Made by a program: the position numbers and the translations under genes. DNA of 64,000 nucleotides. Source: Candidatus Parvarchaeota archaeon. GTDB lineage: Archaea > Nanobdellota > Nanobdellia > JAFCGN01. A model generated the notes under the pieces. It was not told where the DNA came from, ran no database searches, and saw only the letters and a list, made by a program, of their open reading frames with translations. The stretch lies in assembly GCA_017609105.1 (NCBI GenBank), contig JAFCEQ010000001.1, positions 47,407 to 111,406 of the forward strand, read 5' to 3'. This document shows, one piece after another, positions 1 to 56,757 of the stretch (its first letter is position 1; the number at the start of each line of letters is the position of its first letter).

Positions 1-775
1 TTTCTTTAAGAAGTTCTTCATAATTCTCTTTTAATATTTTTAGTGATTCATTAAACATTGTTTTTGCATCTAATTGCTCCCATGACTCAATTGTCATAAT
101 TATTTTTGTTTCATCCCATTCTATATTAATAATGTTTTTACAAGCTTCTAAGCAAGAATCCTTGATTTCACTTATCGCGAGATTAGTGTTATCAACAACA
201 ATTTTTCCTTTCTCTAATTTTATTGCTTCTGAAGTACAATTTTTTATGCATTCTTTTGCTTCTTTTTCAGTATGAGGTTTTACTTTAATTTTAGGAAAAT
301 AAGAGTATGAAACCATGCCTGGAACCCATTTTGCGTGTTCTAATCCTTTTCCTAATACTGCCACAGCTTTTAAGTTTATTTCCTGTCCTTCAAACAATTT
401 TGTTATTGGAATATCTTTTATTACTGGTTCAAAACCTGTTTCAGTTTTTAAATCTCCTGAATAAACTGTTTTAGGTCCTTTCTCTTTTAAATAAAACTCT
501 ACTCTGCATTTATTGCAGCCCTTGCCTTTGCATGAACATTTTTCAGGAAGTTTTAATAATTTTAAATCTGTTTTTAGTGGAATTAAACCAAGTCTTAAAG
601 CAATAACTTCATCATACATTGCACTTGAATTATTTGTAATAACCACATCTTCTATTGCAAGAGTTGGTACCTCAGAAATTATTGTTCTCCTAATAGCATT
701 CGCTTCTTCAGGCATTGTATCTTCAAGCAGAATTTTTGTTTTTATCTTATTTTCACTTATGATTTTTGCTTTCAT
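1..775 (-). CDS. rpoD: DNA-directed RNA polymerase subunit D (Rpo3), partial; the 3' end runs off the window
   Basis: Hand translation of the minus strand from the ATG at 775-773 gives [49 protein letters not shown]... with a Cys cluster [11 protein letters not shown] typical of the Rpo3 Fe-S domain. The start overlaps the rps11 stop (ATGA), and the position after rps13-rps4-rps11 is the conserved archaeal order. Confidence 0.75.
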
Positions 776-1329
776 ATTCTTCTACCTCTTCTACCTCCTT
801 TTTTCCTGCATCCATCATGAGGTAATGGTGTAACATCTTTTATCACGCCAATTCTAAGTCCTGCTCTCGCAAGAGCTCTTATTGCTGCTTGCGCTCCTGG
901 ACCCGGATGTTTAGGCCCATTATGTCCTCCAGGAGCCCTAACATAAATGTGCACTCCTCCAATTCCTTTTGCTAATATTTCTTGCGCTGCTTTTCTCGCA
1001 ACTTGCATTGCAGCTGTTGGAGATGATTCAAGTCTTGAGGATTTAACAACGTGTCCTCCGCTTACTCTTGCAAAAGTCTCGCTTCCTGTTAAATCAGTTA
1101 CATGAACCATTGTGTTATTATAACTTGAAAAAATATGAGCTATTCCCCACCTAATTTGTCTTTCTTTTCTTCTTTCCTTCTTCTCTTCCATCTTGCTTTC
1201 CTCTTTTTTGTTTTCCTTGACTTCAATTTTTACTTTTTTCTCTTGCGTGTTTTCTTTTTTTTCTTTCTTTGATTCTTGTTTTTCTGCACTAACTGCTTTT
1301 ATTTCTTTTTTTTCTTCATTCTTATTCAT
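772..1329 (-). CDS. rps11: 30S ribosomal protein uS11 with a K/E-rich N-terminal extension
   Basis: The C-terminal 130 aa ([33 protein letters not shown]...[19 protein letters not shown]) is canonical uS11. The start overlaps the rps4 stop; an internal Met would remove the ~45-aa lysine-rich leader. Confidence 0.9.
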
Positions 1330-1900
1330 TTTCCTTCACTTTTTCCTCTTTTTTTTCTTCTTTTTTCTCTTCTTTTTGAACTTCAACTTTCATTTTTGAA
1401 GTTTCTTCTTTTTTTTCAGCTTTTATTTTTGGCGCGATTCTTATTTGCGCTTCTTCTTTTAGTGTCACAAGCCTTCCTGGTGAAGAAACAACTTTGTCAC
1501 CAATCATTATTTTTTTATGAACTATCATTTGCCTTGCTTGCTTTATTGTTGAAGCAAGTTGTTTTTTATAAACAAGTGTTTGAAGTCTTCTATCAAGGAA
1601 TTGTTCAACAGTTAAGCTAAGCACATCATCTAATTCTGCTTTTGGGTTATCAAGCAATCCTTTATTATATAAGGAAGTTATTAGTCCTTTCTTTTCTTTT
1701 TCAGCTTGTTCACCAACAGCTGAAATAAGTTTTCTTGCTTGAGCTCTCACTCTTCTTAACTCACTCATTACTTTCCATACTTCTGTTTTATTCTTGAAGC
1801 CATACTTTTTTTTCAATCTTATTTCTTCTTTAATTCTTAATTTTTGCCATGGATGGCCAGGTTTTGAATATTTTCTTTTTGGTTTTTTTGGATCTCCCAT
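1322..1900 (-). CDS. rps4: 30S ribosomal protein uS4 (S9e-type) with a K/E-rich C-terminal tail
   Basis: The N-terminus [19 protein letters not shown] and the S4 RNA-binding domain pattern are present. It lies between rps13 and rps11. Confidence 0.9.
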
Positions 1901-2615: not shown

Positions 2616-4982
2616 TTATTTTCCAATTTTAATAACTGGTACTGCAACATATTCAGGTGGTTTTTTAATAAATTTAATGTAAATAATCACTGATATTAAT
2701 ATAATCGATGGCAGAACAATAACTAAGAAGAATATGAGCCATGGGAATTGTCTTTTTACAATGAACGGACGTGAGAATGTGCTTTCTCTCTGCCCTATTT
2801 TTGCTGTTACTTTTACATCATAATTTCCTTCTGAGTAATTCGTTAATACTGGGATTTTTTCTTCAAAATTCAGGGTTTTTCTTAAAAATTGTTGGTCGTG
2901 ATTCTCGTAAATGGATTTATTATCTTTTATTATTTCATAGTCAAGCAAGACTTTTGTAATATCCTCCCATGTTTTTGAAATTGTTACATTAAGCAGGAGG
3001 TCTTTGCCTGGTGCTGTTTTTTCTTTTGGAATGCTAATGTAAAGGTCAATCCAATCAATATTTAATGGGTTTGAAAAAGAAAAAAATCTTGCTTTATCTT
3101 CATCAGGGAATTGCATGAAATAATCAATTGAGTAAGAGTAATCTGAACTTGTTGCTTTTGTTTTATCAATTGTTACTTTGAATTGCATGGTTGTATTTGG
3201 TTCAATAGTCACGTTTTGTGGTTCAACAGTGTATTGTGTTTCATTTAGATTGTTTAATTTAATTATTGTATTATTCATGTATGCATTGTAAGGGTTAAGC
3301 ACTGAAATATAAAAACTTAAGTAAGTCGTGTTTTCTTCTGTAACATAAATGTATTGAGTTGTAACAGAGTTAACGCTTACACAACTTGCTTTGCATTCAT
3401 TATCACACCATTGCCCTCCCATTATTGTACAAGTAGTTTCATTATTGCACACTTCCAAGTGTTGAGGGCTGCAACAATATTCTTCTTCACAAGTTCCTGT
3501 AAGAGCACACCATTTCTTACCTAATGATTCGCATTCTGTTTGATTGCATAAACTTAAATGATACTCATCACAACAAGAAGTGTTTCCACAAACACCATTA
3601 CAAAAGTATCCTCCCATATTATAACAATCAGTGACATTCGTGCAAGCTGTTAAATTGCTTATATGACAAGTCAAACAAGGCGAGCTCGAACAATAATTCC
3701 CGCACCAATTACATCCTACGTTTTCACAATCAGTTTTAGTATTACAAGCTGTATCACAATTTGAATAAGAGCAAGTTTCTTCTCCTTCTCCAACAACAAA
3801 AGCACCAATAAAAGTTGATGCTGTTAAAGTGTTAGCGCTTTCATCTTTTGTTGCACTAATGCTTGACCAACTTCCTGTGCAAGTTCTTGAAGAGTAATCC
3901 CATGAAGAGCATCCTTTCATTTGCATTCTTGATTCTGTTACTCCACTATCATCATAAGTTATTTTCACTGTTGCGGAATTATAATTAATTATTCCTGAAT
4001 AAAGCCCTATTGCTTTTTGTGGTGTAAGAGTTAATGGAAGAGAATCATGAGGCACTGGAATATCATCAATTAAAAGAATTTCAGTAATATCATTATTTAT
4101 TGTTGCTGAATTAATTGTTATTTCATAGCTTCCGTAAGTTATTTTAAAAGTATAAGTGCCTTCTATTAAATCAAAAGAATAATCTCCTGTGTAATCTCCT
4201 GAAACAATTGTTCCTGAAGAATTTGTTATTTCTAAATTAACTGTGATAGGCGTTCCGTCTTTATCAACAAAACTACCGCTTACTGTGTGTATGGCTTGAG
4301 AAGATATTGTAAAATAATAAATATATTCTCCTGTCCTATATCCGTCTTTTTCAGCTTTAAAAGTAAAGTGATGACTTCCTGCAGTGTAACCTGATAAATC
4401 AACAGTTCCAACAAAACTACCTCCCTCTCCTGTCGTAACTGTTCCTATTAAATCACTGTCAACATAATATTTTAAATCTTGATTAGCCATTAATTGGCAG
4501 TAACAATCTGGTCCAGCATCTGGTTTGAAATTACAGCAAGCATTATCAACAATTCTTCCTGAAAACCCTACTTGAGCATTCTGCTCGTAAGGGGAGTAAG
4601 TATCAAGATTTAAAGTCAAGTTTAAAGCACCTTCGTAAACATCAACGTTTTTTGTTTTTATCTCATCTTCATAACCTGTTTTATGAGAACGCGTTGTTAA
4701 AACATAAGTTCCTACTTCATTCGGGGCTTCAAAACTTATTATGAATTCTCCACTGCTATTTGTGACAACCATTCCTGCAATGCTATTCACAAGACTTCCG
4801 TCTTTTGTAAGATTGTAATAAACTTCTGCATCACCAATATTCGTGTTTCCAGGAAAAGCTGTTGGTTTCCCTCTTAATGTAATGCCATTTTTTTCATCTC
4901 CTAATTCATGCGTTATTATTTCTGCATTAACTATTGAAATTAAAAAAAACAAGGCAATCATTGAGTAAGTTTTTTTAAGCAT
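2616..4982 (-). CDS. Large Cys-rich cell-surface protein with an N-terminal signal peptide, PEGA/carboxypeptidase-regulatory-like beta domains, four tandem ~30-aa Cys-rich modules and a C-terminal TM anchor
   Basis: Signal peptide MLKKTYSMIALFFLISIVNA. Repeated modules TDCENVGCNWCGNYC / TDCYNMGGYFCNGVC / TECESLGKKWCALTGTC / TTCTIMGGQWCDNEC. C-terminal hydrophobic stretch WLIFFLVIVLPSIILISVIIYIKF followed by KKPP. Confidence 0.5.
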   Translation of the reverse strand: MLKKTYSMIALFFLISIVNAEIITHELGDEKNGITLRGKPTAFPGNTNIGDAEVYYNLTKDGSLVNSIAGMVVTNSSGEFIISFEAPNEVGTYVLTTRSHKTGYEDEIKTKNVDVYEGALNLTLNLDTYSPYEQNAQVGFSGRIVDNACCNFKPDAGPDCYCQLMANQDLKYYVDSDLIGTVTTGEGGSFVGTVDLSGYTAGSHHFTFKAEKDGYRTGEYIYYFTISSQAIHTVSGSFVDKDGTPITVNLEITNSSGTIVSGDYTGDYSFDLIEGTYTFKITYGSYEITINSATINNDITEILLIDDIPVPHDSLPLTLTPQKAIGLYSGIINYNSATVKITYDDSGVTESRMQMKGCSSWDYSSRTCTGSWSSISATKDESANTLTASTFIGAFVVGEGEETCSYSNCDTACNTKTDCENVGCNWCGNYCSSSPCLTCHISNLTACTNVTDCYNMGGYFCNGVCGNTSCCDEYHLSLCNQTECESLGKKWCALTGTCEEEYCCSPQHLEVCNNETTCTIMGGQWCDNECKASCVSVNSVTTQYIYVTEENTTYLSFYISVLNPYNAYMNNTIIKLNNLNETQYTVEPQNVTIEPNTTMQFKVTIDKTKATSSDYSYSIDYFMQFPDEDKARFFSFSNPLNIDWIDLYISIPKEKTAPGKDLLLNVTISKTWEDITKVLLDYEIIKDNKSIYENHDQQFLRKTLNFEEKIPVLTNYSEGNYDVKVTAKIGQRESTFSRPFIVKRQFPWLIFFLVIVLPSIILISVIIYIKFIKKPPEYVAVPVIKIGK

Positions 4983-7690: not shown

Positions 7691-7699
7691 TTTAAAAAT

Positions 7700-8066
7700 T
7701 GATTTCTTTATTTTCTCTCTTGCCTTGCTTTTAATTATTTTTTCCTGTCCTTCTTTCACTTTGCCTTATTTTTTATTTTCTTTCTTTTCTTTCTTCTCGC
7801 TTTTTCTTGTCCTTTAACTTTCCCTTATTTTTTTCTGCTGACTTATTCTTTATTTTTCTTAATTTTTTTCCTTTGCTTTCTTTATTTTTTACTTTTCCTG
7901 CTGCGCTTTATTCTTTATTTTTCTTAATTTTTTTCCTTTTTATTTTCTTGCTTTGTTTTGTTTGCCTTATTTTTTCCTGCTGTTTTATTCTTTGTTTTCT
8001 TTCTTTCCTGCCCTTTAACTTTTTATTTTCTTTCTTCTCGCTTTTTCTTGTCCTTTAACTTTTCCC
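7700..8066. repeat. Pyrimidine-rich (purine-rich on the coding strand) degenerate tandem repeat tract 3' of rpl14e, with units of ~65-70 nt related to the rpl18/rpl19e leader element
   Basis: Repeated cores such as ttattctttatttttcttaatttttttccttt occur twice, tttctttcttctcgctttttcttgtcctttaactt occurs twice and tttgccttatttttt(c)ctgc occurs three times. They share the gccttatttttttcctgc-ttattctttatttt core with the 14372-14534 and 15166-15326 copies. Confidence 0.6.
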
Positions 8067-8378
8067 TTATTTTTTTTCTTTTTTTGCTGTTGTTTTTTTC
8101 TTAGTTTTTTCTTGTTTCTTTTCTTTTCTTGTTTTCTTGTCTTTTGTTTTTAATTTGAATCCTGCTTCAATCAATGCTTTTCTTGTTTCTTCTGTGCTTG
8201 CATTCTTTTTTATTTTTAAGATTACTGGCGCGAAATCAAGGTGTGCTATATTGCATTTCCTTCTTTTCACATCGCCATCAATAATCACGAACTTATCATC
8301 AAGTTTGTCTATAATAACGCAAACACGTCCGGCTTCTCTTCCTGCAATTTTAATACAAACTCTTCCAATTTCTATCAT
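8067..8378 (-). CDS. rpl14e: 50S ribosomal protein eL14 (KOW domain) with a K-rich C-terminal tail
   Basis: MIEIGRVCIKIAGREAGRVCVIIDKLDDKFVIIDG is the eL14 KOW signature. The cmk-rpl34e neighbourhood matches. Confidence 0.8.
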   Translation of the reverse strand: MIEIGRVCIKIAGREAGRVCVIIDKLDDKFVIIDGDVKRRKCNIAHLDFAPVILKIKKNASTEETRKALIEAGFKLKTKDKKTRKEKKQEKTKKKTTAKKEKK

Positions 8379-13141: not shown

Positions 13142-13872
13142 TCTTCTTTTCCTCCTTCTATGATTCCAGCTTGTTTAGCAAATTTTTTGTGATACTTTGT
13201 TTTTGTTAATTTTTTTAATGCTCTCATTGTTGCTATGGTTAGGTTAATCCTGCTGTTTGTTTGTCCTTTTGTTCTTGACCACACGTCTTTTATTCCAGCA
13301 AGTTCTAGTATTTTTTTTGCTTCATCATGAACTACTAATCCTACTCCTTTTGGCGCAGGTAGTAAATCAATTCTAACGCTTGAGCATCTGCCGCTTACTT
13401 TGAAGGGTATTGAATGAGTTTCTCCGCAATTACACTCCCATGAACCGCATCCTCTTTTTATTCTTATTAAGTTTAATTTTGCTTTTTTTAGGGCTTTTTC
13501 TCTTGCTGGGAATGTTTCGTGGCTTCCTGCCATTCCAACACCAACATAACCGTTCCTGTTTCCTACAACCACCATTACACTGAATTTTGGCTTGTTTCCT
13601 TCTGCTGTCTTTTTTTGTGTTTGTTTAAAGGCTCTTCTTTGGCCTCCTCCGAATTTTCCTTTTGCTTGTCCGATGAGTATTAAATCATGTTCTAGATTAG
13701 GCATTAATTTATCTATGATTTCTGGTTCTCTTATTACATATCCTTTGTTAAAAATTTCATCAATATTAGTTATTTCTGCGTTTTTTACTTTTTTACCTAG
13801 TTCTGTTTTTGGAATCCATGAATCTGTTTCTGAAATTGTTTCAACTTTGTTTTTATTTTTTCTTTCTGCCAA
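13138..13872 (-). CDS. rps5: 30S ribosomal protein uS5
   Basis: VVVGNRNGYVGVGMAGSHETFPAREKALKKAKLNLIRI...GVGLVVHDEAKKILELAGIKDVW is canonical uS5. Confidence 0.9.
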   Translation of the reverse strand: MAERKNKNKVETISETDSWIPKTELGKKVKNAEITNIDEIFNKGYVIREPEIIDKLMPNLEHDLILIGQAKGKFGGGQRRAFKQTQKKTAEGNKPKFSVMVVVGNRNGYVGVGMAGSHETFPAREKALKKAKLNLIRIKRGCGSWECNCGETHSIPFKVSGRCSSVRIDLLPAPKGVGLVVHDEAKKILELAGIKDVWSRTKGQTNSRINLTIATMRALKKLTKTKYHKKFAKQAGIIEGGKEE

Positions 13873-14371
13873 ACTTCATCTCCTCTATTGTTTTTTTTAT
13901 TTTTTCAAAATCTTGTTTAATTTTTAAATGCTCTCCTTTTATTCTTTCTTCTGAAGGCATGATTTCAGGGTCATAATTTATTTTTATTCCACCGTCTGTT
14001 ATTCCTTTGATGAATGCCATGATTGAACATCCTTTGATTATGAAATGTAATCCTGTGTCAGGAACTACTTCTTTTATTTTGTTGTTTAATGCTTTTTTTG
14101 CAAGTAAGTAGCCTGTTAAGTATGATGCTGTTATGTTTTTCGTGTTTTCTCCTTTCCAACCGAGATTTAGTAATTCTTTTGAGTTTACTGTTATTAGGAT
14201 TTTATCTCCTTTTTCATTGTATTCAGCGATTTGCCCGATTACGCGTTTGTTTGTTTTTCTTATGATTAATCTTGGTTTTCTGCTTTTTAATAATGCTAAT
14301 CTCTTCTTATAATTAGTTTTTTGTTCTCTTCTTCTCCTGTATTTCACCACATATGTTGCTTTTTTTGCCAT
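13853..14371 (-). CDS. rpl18: 50S ribosomal protein uL18
   Basis: YRRRREQKTNYKKRLALLKSRKPRLIIRKTNKRVIGQI is the uL18 N-terminus. Confidence 0.9.
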   Translation of the reverse strand: MAKKATYVVKYRRRREQKTNYKKRLALLKSRKPRLIIRKTNKRVIGQIAEYNEKGDKILITVNSKELLNLGWKGENTKNITASYLTGYLLAKKALNNKIKEVVPDTGLHFIIKGCSIMAFIKGITDGGIKINYDPEIMPSEERIKGEHLKIKQDFEKIKKTIEEMKFGRKKK

Positions 14372-14534
14372 TTTTCCACCAATTTCATTCTTAATTACTC
14401 TTTTATTTTACCTTATTTTTTTCCTGCCACCTTATTCTTTATTTTCTTTTTTCTCCTCTTGCTTACCTTATTTTTCTCTTCTCCATCCCCTATTTTTTGT
14501 TTTCTTTTTTCTCCCTTTGTTTTGCCTTATTTTT
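14372..14534. repeat. ~160-nt leader/intergenic element, copy A (5' of rpl18, 3' of rpl19e); near-identical to copy B
   Basis: catttttccaccaatttcattcttaattactcttttattttaccttatttttttcctgccaccttattctttattttcttttttctcctcttgcttaccttatttttctcttctccatcccctattttttgttttcttttttctccctttgttttgccttattttt matches 15166-15326 with only a few substitutions and indels. Confidence 0.7.
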
Positions 14535-15165
14535 TTGTCTTTTTTTCTTTTTTCTCTGTGTTTTTCTTTGTTTTACTTGTTTTCGCGCGTTCTTCTTGTT
14601 TTACTTGTTTTTTTTGTGTTTCTTGTTTTTTTTGTTTCTTGTTTTGGTTTTCTTTTTCTTGTGCTTTGTTTTTTAGTAGTTCTTTTAATTTTTTTTCTTT
14701 GTTTTCTTTGTATTTGGTTAAATCTTTTTTCATTGTTTTTGTTAGGTAGAGTTCAAGGTGTGAGATGCTTCTGAAAAAGTTTCCTTTTGATTTTAAGTAT
14801 AATTCTCTGTATTCTTTGTTAGTGATTATTTTTGAGTTTTTTAATTCTTTTAGGAATCTTCTTTGAGGTCTTATCTTATTTATCCATCTTCTTTTCTTTG
14901 GATTTCTTGCTTTGAAGGTTCCTTTTCTTTTGCCTTGCCCGCTTCTTCTTCCTTTTCTTTTTTGTGCTAGTACTTTTTTCTTTCTTCCTGAGCTTATTCC
15001 TTTTTTTTGTTTTTTTGTTATGATTTTGTTTTTTATTAATGAACGAACATCTGCTCTTGTGATTGCTTCTTTTATTTCTTTGAGTTTTTCAACATTGAAT
15101 TTAACTCTTTTTTTTCCTGCTTTCAGTAGTTTTGCTCCTAATCTTTTTTGTGTTCTTAATTTCAT
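14527..15165 (-). CDS. rpl19e: 50S ribosomal protein eL19 with a K-rich C-terminal tail
   Basis: MKLRTQKRLGAKLLKAGKKRVKFN...GRRSGQGKRKGT matches eL19. Confidence 0.9.
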   Translation of the reverse strand: MKLRTQKRLGAKLLKAGKKRVKFNVEKLKEIKEAITRADVRSLIKNKIITKKQKKGISSGRKKKVLAQKRKGRRSGQGKRKGTFKARNPKKRRWINKIRPQRRFLKELKNSKIITNKEYRELYLKSKGNFFRSISHLELYLTKTMKKDLTKYKENKEKKLKELLKNKAQEKENQNKKQKKQETQKKQVKQEERAKTSKTKKNTEKKEKKTKK

Positions 15166-15326
15166 TTATTCCACCATTTCATTCTTAATTATTCTTTTTT
15201 GCCTTATTTTTTTCCTGCCACCTTATTCTTTATTTTCTTTTTTCTCCTCTTGCTTACCTTATTTTTCTCTTCTCCATCCCTATTCTTTGTTTTCTTTTTT
15301 CTCCCTTTGTTTTGCCTTATTTTTTA
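15166..15326. repeat. ~160-nt leader/intergenic element, copy B (5' of rpl19e, 3' of rpl32e)
   Basis: Near-identical to 14372-14534, including the SD-like GGTGG immediately upstream of the ATG. Confidence 0.7.
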
Positions 15327-15372
15327 TTTTTCCTGCCTTTGCTTGCCCTGCACCTTGTTTTCGGATTTTTTT

Positions 15373-15984
15373 TTATCTTCCTCTGTTGCTATCGCCTTTG
15401 AAAGATTTTGTTTCTTTTGTTGTTCTTGTTGTTTTTTTAATTTTGTTAATGCTTTGTTTTTCTTCTGTTATTTCTTTTTGTTCTTGCTTTATTTCTGGTT
15501 TTCCTGTTTTTGCTTTTTCTTTTTCAGCTTTTTCTTTTGCTTTTTTCATTCTTTCTTTCTTTTTGTTTTTTCTTTGTTCTGATTTCTTTTTTCTTTCTTT
15601 GATTTCTTTTTGTATTTTCTCTAATTTTTTTTCAATTTTTTTAGTGTTCGCTATTCTTATTTTGAGTTTTAAAGCATTTTCTAGGATTTCTTTTATTGTT
15701 TTTTTGCTGAGTTTTGAGTTTAAGACGAATATGTAATTGTTAAGAGTGTCTTTTTTTTCTTCTATTATTTTTTTAAATTGTTTTTTTGAGTTAATGATTA
15801 TTTGTTCTAATCCTGATGGGTGTTTGAATCTTTGGTTTTTTGGTTTCATAAAGCTTGGGTCTGGCATTTTAAAAGTTTTTTTCTCTTTTCTTCTGACTTT
15901 TGAGTGCATGCCTTTTGGTTTCCTCCATGCCATGCTAAGTTTTTTTCTTTTATGAAATTCTCTTCTATGAAATTTTTTACTCAT
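15373..15984 (-). CDS. rpl32e: 50S ribosomal protein eL32 with a long K/E-rich C-terminal tail
   Basis: WRKPKGMHSKVRRKEKK...KHPSGLEQ...IRIANTK matches the eL32 core (WRKPRG..N.VRR, PSG, I.VTN). It lies between rpl6 and rpl19e. Confidence 0.85.
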   Translation of the reverse strand: MSKKFHRREFHKRKKLSMAWRKPKGMHSKVRRKEKKTFKMPDPSFMKPKNQRFKHPSGLEQIIINSKKQFKKIIEEKKDTLNNYIFVLNSKLSKKTIKEILENALKLKIRIANTKKIEKKLEKIQKEIKERKKKSEQRKNKKKERMKKAKEKAEKEKAKTGKPEIKQEQKEITEEKQSINKIKKTTRTTKETKSFKGDSNRGR

Positions 15985-56637: not shown

Positions 56638-56757
56638 TCCCGCCTCCCGGATTCGAACCGGGAATCTCACGGTAACGGCTAATAAAGAACACGTGTTCGT
56701 GTTCAGCCCTTTAAACCTAACTACAGCCGTGCGCGTTAGCCATTACGCTAAGGCGGG
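56638..56757 (-). tRNA. tRNA-Tyr (anticodon GTA) with a 47-nt intron at the canonical 37/38 position
   Basis: Exons CCCGCCTTAGCGTAATGGCTAACGCGCACGGCTGTAG / ACCGTGAGATTCCCGGTTCGAATCCGGGAGGCGGGA. The C1-G72 pair is the archaeal Tyr identity element. Intron is TTAGGTTTAAAGGGCTGAACACGAACACGTGTTCTTTATTAGCCGTT. Confidence 0.75.

Follow-up and report, generated by a model that had tools for sequence, protein, structure and literature searches.

Why would an archaeal ribosomal protein operon, in which neighboring genes otherwise overlap or nearly touch, carry almost the same purine-rich stretch of ~160 nucleotides (nt) twice, once upstream of the gene for ribosomal protein uL18 and once upstream of the gene for eL19? 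This question is raised by a 64,000-nt stretch of contig JAFCEQ010000001.1 (positions 47,407 to 111,406 of the forward strand; assembly GCA_017609105.1) from Candidatus Parvarchaeota archaeon, hereafter the window, whose first letter is position 1 in all coordinates given below. An earlier note on this DNA had described the repeated stretch (hereafter the element) as a duplicated leader, and had suggested either a transposed regulatory module, i.e., an internal promoter or an autoregulatory structure in the messenger RNA (mRNA), or a recent duplication that also shaped the lysine-rich tails of nearby proteins. The answer developed here is that the element is probably not regulatory, and that it most likely represents a hypervariable, minisatellite-like, non-coding and unstructured spacer that was recently copied within the operon.

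The element lies in an S10/spc-type archaeal ribosomal protein operon of 25 genes, which runs on the minus strand from L3 (25032) to SecY (11055) in a window of 30% G+C. The genes, copies, and motifs on which the argument depends are listed here from higher to lower coordinates, i.e., in the sense direction of the operon:

15373-15984, minus strand: eL32 gene, 203 amino acids (aa), Pfam PF01655 (L32e), with a C-terminal tail rich in lysine and glutamate (K/E-rich)
15328-15372, minus strand: non-duplicated 5' part of the eL32-eL19 spacer, directly after the eL32 stop; the similarity between the copies ends upstream of AAAAAATAAGG
15166-15327, minus strand: copy B, the duplicated 3' part of the eL32-eL19 spacer
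15202-15324, minus strand: tandem array in copy B, 2.2 x a 57-nt unit starting AAATAAGG (Tandem Repeats Finder (TRF) score 158, 82% matches)
15171-15175, minus strand: GGTGG Shine-Dalgarno (SD)-like site, 5 nt upstream of the eL19 ATG (15163-15165), in the arrangement GGTGG-AATAA-ATG
14527-15165, minus strand: eL19 gene, 212 aa, Pfam PF01280 and PF25476 (L19e), with its stop codon within copy A
14372-14536, minus strand: copy A, the eL19-uL18 spacer (155 nt non-coding) together with the last eL19 codons and TAA stop (14527-14529)
14408-14534, minus strand: tandem array in copy A, 2.2 x a 58-nt unit starting AAATAAGG (TRF score 150, 80% matches)
14376-14380, minus strand: GGTGG SD-like site, 4 nt upstream of the uL18 ATG (14369-14371), in the arrangement GGTGG-AAAA-ATG
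13853-14371, minus strand: uL18 gene, 172 aa, Pfam PF17144 and PF00861 (L18/L5e), split from eL19 by copy A

The eL32-eL19 gap measures 207 nt, with copy B beginning ~45 nt past the eL32 stop, and the eL19-uL18 gap measures 155 nt (14372-14526), while at all remaining junctions from L3 to SecY the genes overlap or lie no more than 28 nt apart, so that these two spacers are indeed the only sizeable gaps in the operon, as had been proposed. In a global alignment of 14372-14536 with 15166-15327, 157 of the 167 columns are identical and the copies differ by three substitutions and five small indel events; a blastn search of the window with copy A (14372-14534, minus strand) likewise matches 15169-15324 at 95% over 161 nt (E 6e-68), which bears out the near-identity that the earlier note had read by inspection. 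The longest identical run between the copies is 79 nt (14411-14489, equal to 15202-15280), and the clustering of their differences is not significant (P ~0.09), such that gene conversion is not claimed. The similarity is not confined to short low-complexity runs either, since copy A scores 38 to 62 against the other purine-rich tails of the window and 295 bits against itself. The strong purine-richness ascribed to the transcribed strand also stands, with 86% purine on the sense strand of the element versus 66% across the operon. Two parts of the first description need adjusting. Both copies do contain GGTGG, but the distance from it to the ATG, included there in the near-identity, differs by one base; and the copies are intergenic for most of their length, except that the first 8-10 nt of copy A are the last codons and TAA of eL19. 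GGTG(A/G) placed 4-8 nt 5' of the start is the usual SD arrangement in this operon, being found at about a dozen of its other genes.

Each copy is internally repetitive. The units stand head to tail with a length of 57-58 nt, inside the 10-100 nt range of minisatellites, and are repeated 2.2 times per copy, and an nhmmer profile of the unit recovers the four units of copies A and B and nothing else in the window. How such a tract behaves over time can be read from close relatives. The L18 protein of the window has one identical database entry (P0001) and one close relative (P0002, 84% identity), and the next homologues, which carry DPANN names, are at most 60% identical over the best BLASTP segment. 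P0002 is found on contigs of a metagenome-assembled genome (MAG) labeled "Candidatus Parvarchaeota archaeon" and of its strain variants, here referred to as the sister species. At three of its loci (L001-L003) eL32 and eL19 are likewise separated by a spacer of 85-87% purine, which is barely alignable with that of the window: between the window and its nearest relative, identity is 78-81% in coding DNA, 55-66% at third-codon positions, and 56% (global) in the spacers, and the conserved part of the sister-species spacer is limited to the last ~20 nt around the SD site and ATG (GAAATGGTG..TAAATG). Spacer length is 161 nt in L001 and L003 and 225 nt in L002 (9295-9455 in L001 versus 9231-9455 in L002), although the L18 proteins of these loci are identical. 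Two of these strains differ within this spacer by 64 nt of indels in four indel events and by 4.3% substitutions, as compared with 0.9% substitutions and no indels in the flanking 2.2 kb of genes. The length polymorphism of the minisatellite kind shown here is that of the sister species.

The same relatives, together with more distant genomes, give the duplication its direction. At L001-L004, which have a spacer at eL32-eL19, eL19 overlaps uL18 directly as TAATG, exactly where copy A stands in the window, and copy A is absent. In three more distant genomes (outgroup loci L005-L008) the eL32-eL19 gaps are 5-11 nt and the eL19-uL18 junctions range from -20 to +7 nt, and across 88 archaeal loci the median gaps are 5 nt and -1 nt, respectively. 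Gaps at ~80 other archaeal loci are ~0-10 nt with no comparable purine-rich spacer, and no 85%-purine spacer was found in these other lineages; the few larger gaps among the 88 loci are of ordinary composition or hold an inserted gene, with the exception of L082. The uL18 copy is accordingly young and lineage-specific, because a spacer is absent from that position in the relatives and in ~80 other archaeal loci, and it is very recent, because the copies have accumulated three substitutions in ~160 nt while third-codon identity between the two species is 55-66%. The recent duplication suggested earlier is well supported by these comparisons: copy A appears to be the derived, new copy and copy B to occupy the ancestral position, and the spacer appears confined to a genus-level clade of AT-rich, DPANN-type archaea. 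Two of the compared loci deserve mention in their own right. In L082, from a Woesearchaeota MAG, the eL32-eL19 gap (~1935-2048) is 114 nt long and 77% purine, with two tandem units of ~45 nt; it adjoins a run of N in eL32 and may be an independent tail-adjacent repeat spacer or an assembly problem. In L032, from an archaeal MAG, a 580-nt insertion of ordinary composition (1921-2500), apparently an extra gene, lies between eL19 and uL18.

A search for further copies adds one diverged sequence, bringing the content of the 64-kb window to two close copies and one diverged copy. The latter sits in a different non-coding setting:

7812-7939, minus strand: third and diverged sequence related to the element, with ~75-80% identity across 90-130 nt (blastn 80% over 89 nt)
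7691-8066, minus strand: purine-rich non-coding trailer, 376 nt and 85% purine, lying 3' of a KOW/L14e-like gene (8067-8378) and facing a convergent gene

This relative was detected by pairwise alignment only, and the nhmmer profile of the unit misses it. Its Smith-Waterman score of 89 was reached by 0 of 500 dinucleotide shuffles (54.6 +/- 6.9), and compares with scores of 38-62 for the element against coding K-rich tails and against the spacers of the relatives. Since it lies in a 3' trailer, it argues against a dedicated 5' leader function, and is in keeping with a repeat that spreads from one purine-rich tract to another. The trailer following the L14e-like gene is ~130 nt long in the sister species, i.e., the window trailer is about three times longer, and the latter contains four AAATAAGG motifs as well as internal duplications separated by ~243 nt. 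At the 5' ends of ribosomal protein genes, where the earlier note had looked to enrichment, the element is on none of the other genes of the 25-gene operon. Beyond the window, a 30-nt degenerate core pattern had no match in 185,579 species-representative genomes and none in metagenome contigs, both collections being without the source genome, and a looser 27-nt unit pattern had none in IMG/VR viral contigs. The single match of the looser pattern in JGI metagenomes lies in an unrelated bacterial gene, at its lysine-rich end, and was set aside as due to chance.

Did the duplication also shape the lysine-rich tails of eL19 and eL32, as had been proposed? It did so in one limited respect, in that eL19 now terminates at a TAA inside copy A. 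The eL19 tail exceeds that of the sister species (where eL19 has 181 aa in L001) by 31 aa, and this extra length came about by local tandem expansions of 9, 18, and 43 nt; a derivation of the extra tail from the element or from the eL32 tail was considered and rejected, as the scores of 38-42 (38 against the element) are at background. The tail of eL32 is unaffected, its C-terminus (...KSFKGDSNRGR, then stop) being the same as in the relatives. Such tails are common in the window. Long K/E-rich extensions of low complexity are found on the ribosomal proteins encoded at 772-1900 (minus strand) and by many genes between 8067 and 25032; S11, for example, is extended by ~60 aa at its N-terminus, and S4, eL32, eL19, and the L14e-like protein have C-terminal tails. 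Short tandem DNA repeats occur within the K/E-rich tails. A literature search on lysine-rich extensions of DPANN ribosomal proteins yielded nothing bearing on purine-rich operon spacers.

Taken together with the anatomy of the copies, the comparisons suggest the following course of events. The eL32-eL19 junction would first have gained a purine-rich spacer in an ancestor shared by the window organism and its sister species, and ~160 nt of this spacer would then have been copied, in the window lineage, 790 nt downstream into an eL19/uL18 junction whose ancestral state would have been the TAATG stop/start overlap. Copying most likely proceeded by recombination or template switching at short purine-rich microhomologies, for which candidate sequences lie at both boundaries. 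At the 5' boundary, AAAAATAAGGC at the start of the unit may have paired off with AAAAATAATGGC at the old eL19-stop/uL18-start, and, more broadly, the unit start AAAAATAAGGCAAAAC resembles the presumed ancestral eL19-stop/uL18-start AAAAATAATGGCTAAAA; at the 3' boundary, the shared sequence would be the GGTG(A/G)AA..ATG that precedes both genes. One double template switch may have sufficed, or spacer plus eL19 may have been duplicated in tandem with subsequent loss of the second eL19. As a consequence, uL18 would still be carried on the same polycistronic mRNA as eL19 and would no longer be translationally coupled to it, being initiated from the GGTGG SD site 155 nt past the preceding stop and not by termination-reinitiation. 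Within the spacer, probably only the ~20 nt proximal to the SD site and start are constrained, and the rest may be tolerated, expansion-prone filler.

Several other explanations could account for parts of these observations, and the regulatory ones bear most directly on what had been proposed. If the element were an autoregulatory mRNA structure, i.e., a mimic of ribosomal RNA (rRNA) bound by eL19, uL18, or a neighboring protein, its sole support would be the position upstream of ribosomal protein genes. A sequence of 86% purine offers almost no pairing partners, and the structure expected of such a leader is missing on both strands. The 183-nt sequence has a minimum free energy (MFE) of -0.7 kcal/mol (z +0.84) and the 227-nt sequence one of -4.9 kcal/mol (z +0.56); of 200 shuffles in either case, 141-160 were as stable or more so, and folding of the antisense strand yields 0 kcal/mol. 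Rfam gave no match on the element at gathering thresholds or at E<=1, its only matches in the window being transfer RNAs (tRNAs) elsewhere, and the relatives provide no conservation on which to assess covariation. The folding results effectively refute a structured autoregulatory leader, to which we attach next to no probability. An internal archaeal promoter (B recognition element (BRE) and TATA box) in each copy, from which eL19 and uL18 would start transcripts of their own, is improbable as well, albeit not to the same degree. T occurs in a single block of the element, TAATTAAG at -26..-19 from each ATG, and AT-rich boxes near that distance could in principle bind the TATA-binding protein (TBP); yet this block is absent from the spacer of the relatives, and the element has no TTTAAA, unlike the tRNAs and leading genes of the window, where an AAAnyTTTAAA box stands ~25-38 nt upstream of 5-6 tRNAs and ~8 leading genes (a comparison made by eye and not with a scored model). 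Moreover, an SD site suits an internal cistron and not the leaderless starts seen at the leading genes. With no fold, no Rfam match, no TTTAAA, and a sequence that is not conserved in the sister species, the regulatory module envisaged in either of its forms finds no support. The spacers might instead be lysine-rich tails that have decayed or are translated conditionally, by way of a premature stop, readthrough, or frameshifting on A-runs. This would explain why the eL19 frame stays open for 37 K/R/E/G-rich codons past its TAA, why that stop lies inside the repeat, and why purine-rich trailers follow K-rich tails at three loci. T-poor sequence, however, will contain open frames by chance; each of the three frames of the element has stops, and its one long open frame is put out of register from one copy to the other by a 1-nt indel (GGGG versus GGG), so that no reading frame is kept. 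The mini reading frames near the ATG differ as well (MKLVEKWQKKQHMW versus MKWWNK, each ending in a stop), the eL32 C-terminus is conserved and followed by in-frame stops, and the additional part of the eL19 tail shows no homology to the element (score 38), which leaves very little room for a coding origin. Less credible still, and on a par with the autoregulatory structure, would be a small non-autonomous mobile element inserting between genes, similar to miniature inverted-repeat transposable elements (MITEs) or repetitive extragenic palindromic (REP) sequences. Two to three copies in 64 kb, all of them intergenic, would agree with it, but neither terminal inverted repeats nor other inverted repeats or palindromes involving the element were found, there is no target-site duplication in the flanks, all copies have the same orientation and adjoin purine-rich tails, and no copy was seen in the 185,579 species genomes or in IMG/VR, which are without the source genome, the one match in JGI metagenomes being by chance.

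The remaining alternatives concern the reality and the usefulness of the copy. Copy A could be an assembly artefact or a strain-mixture chimera of a metagenomic contig, given that the identical L18 protein is recorded once, on a 116-kb contig, that low-complexity repeats are hard to assemble, and that the identical 79-nt core could be a collapsed graph node. A graph loop would produce identical copies, whereas on either side of the core the copies here each have substitutions and indels of their own; furthermore, copy A is continuous with a unique eL19 tail and a unique uL18 start, so that junction-spanning reads must exist, and we consider an artefact very improbable. The most serious rival is a selected translational module, in which the unstructured purine tract would provide ribosomes with a standby or landing site, or serve as an insulator, uncoupling the translation of eL19 and of uL18 from the cistron upstream, and would have been duplicated because it was advantageous. 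It owes this standing to the eL32-eL19 spacer being retained in both species of the clade despite genome streamlining; the spacer is also wholly unstructured and ends in a GGTGG SD site, and its copy replaced a coupled TAATG junction by an SD-led start. On the other side, SD-like 4- and 5-mers in the element are no commoner than in composition-matched shuffles (p 0.3-0.55), conservation in the sister species is limited to the last ~20 nt, spacer length differs by 64 nt between strains of one species, ~80 other archaeal operons have no such spacer, and a relative of the element lies in a 3' trailer with no cistron after it, which together make the module rather unlikely. In a related and also doubtful reading, to which we would give slightly less weight, the purine-rich 57-58-nt unit actively spreads, remodels ribosomal protein operons, and is kept as a landing platform for ribosomes or RNA-binding proteins. 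The unit would then insert at the AAA-AAA-TAA ends of lysine-rich tails, donate stop codons and SD sites, convert coupled gene pairs into independently initiated ones, and be a visible source of lysine-rich tail extensions, and a putative partner in any of these landing-platform readings would bind AAAUAAGG-containing units. A recently copied, minisatellite-like spacer remains the explanation that we prefer, with some considerations weighing on the other side. A spacer of at least 160 nt has been kept in the most highly expressed operon of a streamlined, gene-dense genome in two diverged species, and it was also expanded in L002 and duplicated in the window lineage, so it could be useful, e.g., in uncoupling translation or in offering a site where proteins or ribosomes land. 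In addition, the copy count is that of the 64-kb window, the case against an internal transcription start is made from the sequence, and the duplication mechanism is read from its end product only. We acknowledge these points, and regard the duplication as real but ordinary, a minor curiosity.

Comparison with known systems sets the element beside prokaryotic minisatellites and microhomology-mediated segmental duplications, and it belongs to none of the ribosomal protein leader families, promoter classes, or repeat-element families with which it was compared. It resembles segmental duplications mediated by microhomology, template switching, or gene conversion between low-complexity tracts of prokaryotic genomes, in that the copies are direct, lie 790 nt apart, have purine-rich microhomologies at both boundaries, and are near-identical while the surrounding DNA is highly diverged from the relatives; it departs from them in that only the product is seen, and this product landed precisely between two essential, formerly overlapping genes, giving one of them a new stop codon while keeping a working SD site for the other. 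Likeness to prokaryotic minisatellites, or variable-number tandem repeats (VNTRs), lies in the 57-58-nt unit repeated ~2.2 times, the 161 versus 225 nt in the sister species, and the fast turnover, whereas the strand asymmetry of 86% purine, the location in a ribosomal protein operon, and the link to lysine-rich tails are unlike the typical case. Leaders of ribosomal protein mRNAs (e.g., those of bacterial L10, L20, and S15 in Rfam and the archaeal L1 and L7Ae sites) are structured rRNA mimics that are conserved across taxa. The element shares with them a position directly upstream of ribosomal protein cistrons, but it is unfoldable, has no match in Rfam, and even in the sister species its sequence is not retained. 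REP sequences and their composites, the bacterial interspersed mosaic elements (BIMEs), as well as enterobacterial repetitive intergenic consensus (ERIC) sequences, are similar to it as repeated non-coding sequence between cistrons of one transcript; REP and ERIC sequences are stem-loop-forming palindromes with copy numbers from tens to hundreds, while the element is without self-complementarity and has two to three detectable copies.

Two observations elsewhere in the window are recorded here for completeness. At 56638-56757 (minus strand) an Rfam tRNA match extends across 120 nt with 55 bits and was not called by ARAGORN; it is probably an intron-containing tRNA. The minus-strand gene at 2616-4982, which adjoins tRNA-Ser, encodes a cysteine-rich protein of 788 aa with a hydrophobic N-terminus and a C-terminal hydrophobic anchor, and this is probably a surface protein.

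For the biology of these archaea, the locus provides an example of low-complexity purine-rich DNA, situated beside lysine-rich tails, being copied inside an essential operon, where the copy broke a stop/start overlap conserved across Archaea and neither reading frame was disrupted. It also carries a caution for the annotation of DPANN genomes, namely that near-identical "leaders" need not be regulatory. The finding would gain greater weight if the spacer were to tune the synthesis of eL19 relative to uL18, or if the unit were to spread to many tails; if true, it would bear on how streamlined archaea gain tail extensions of their ribosomal proteins and re-wire translational coupling.

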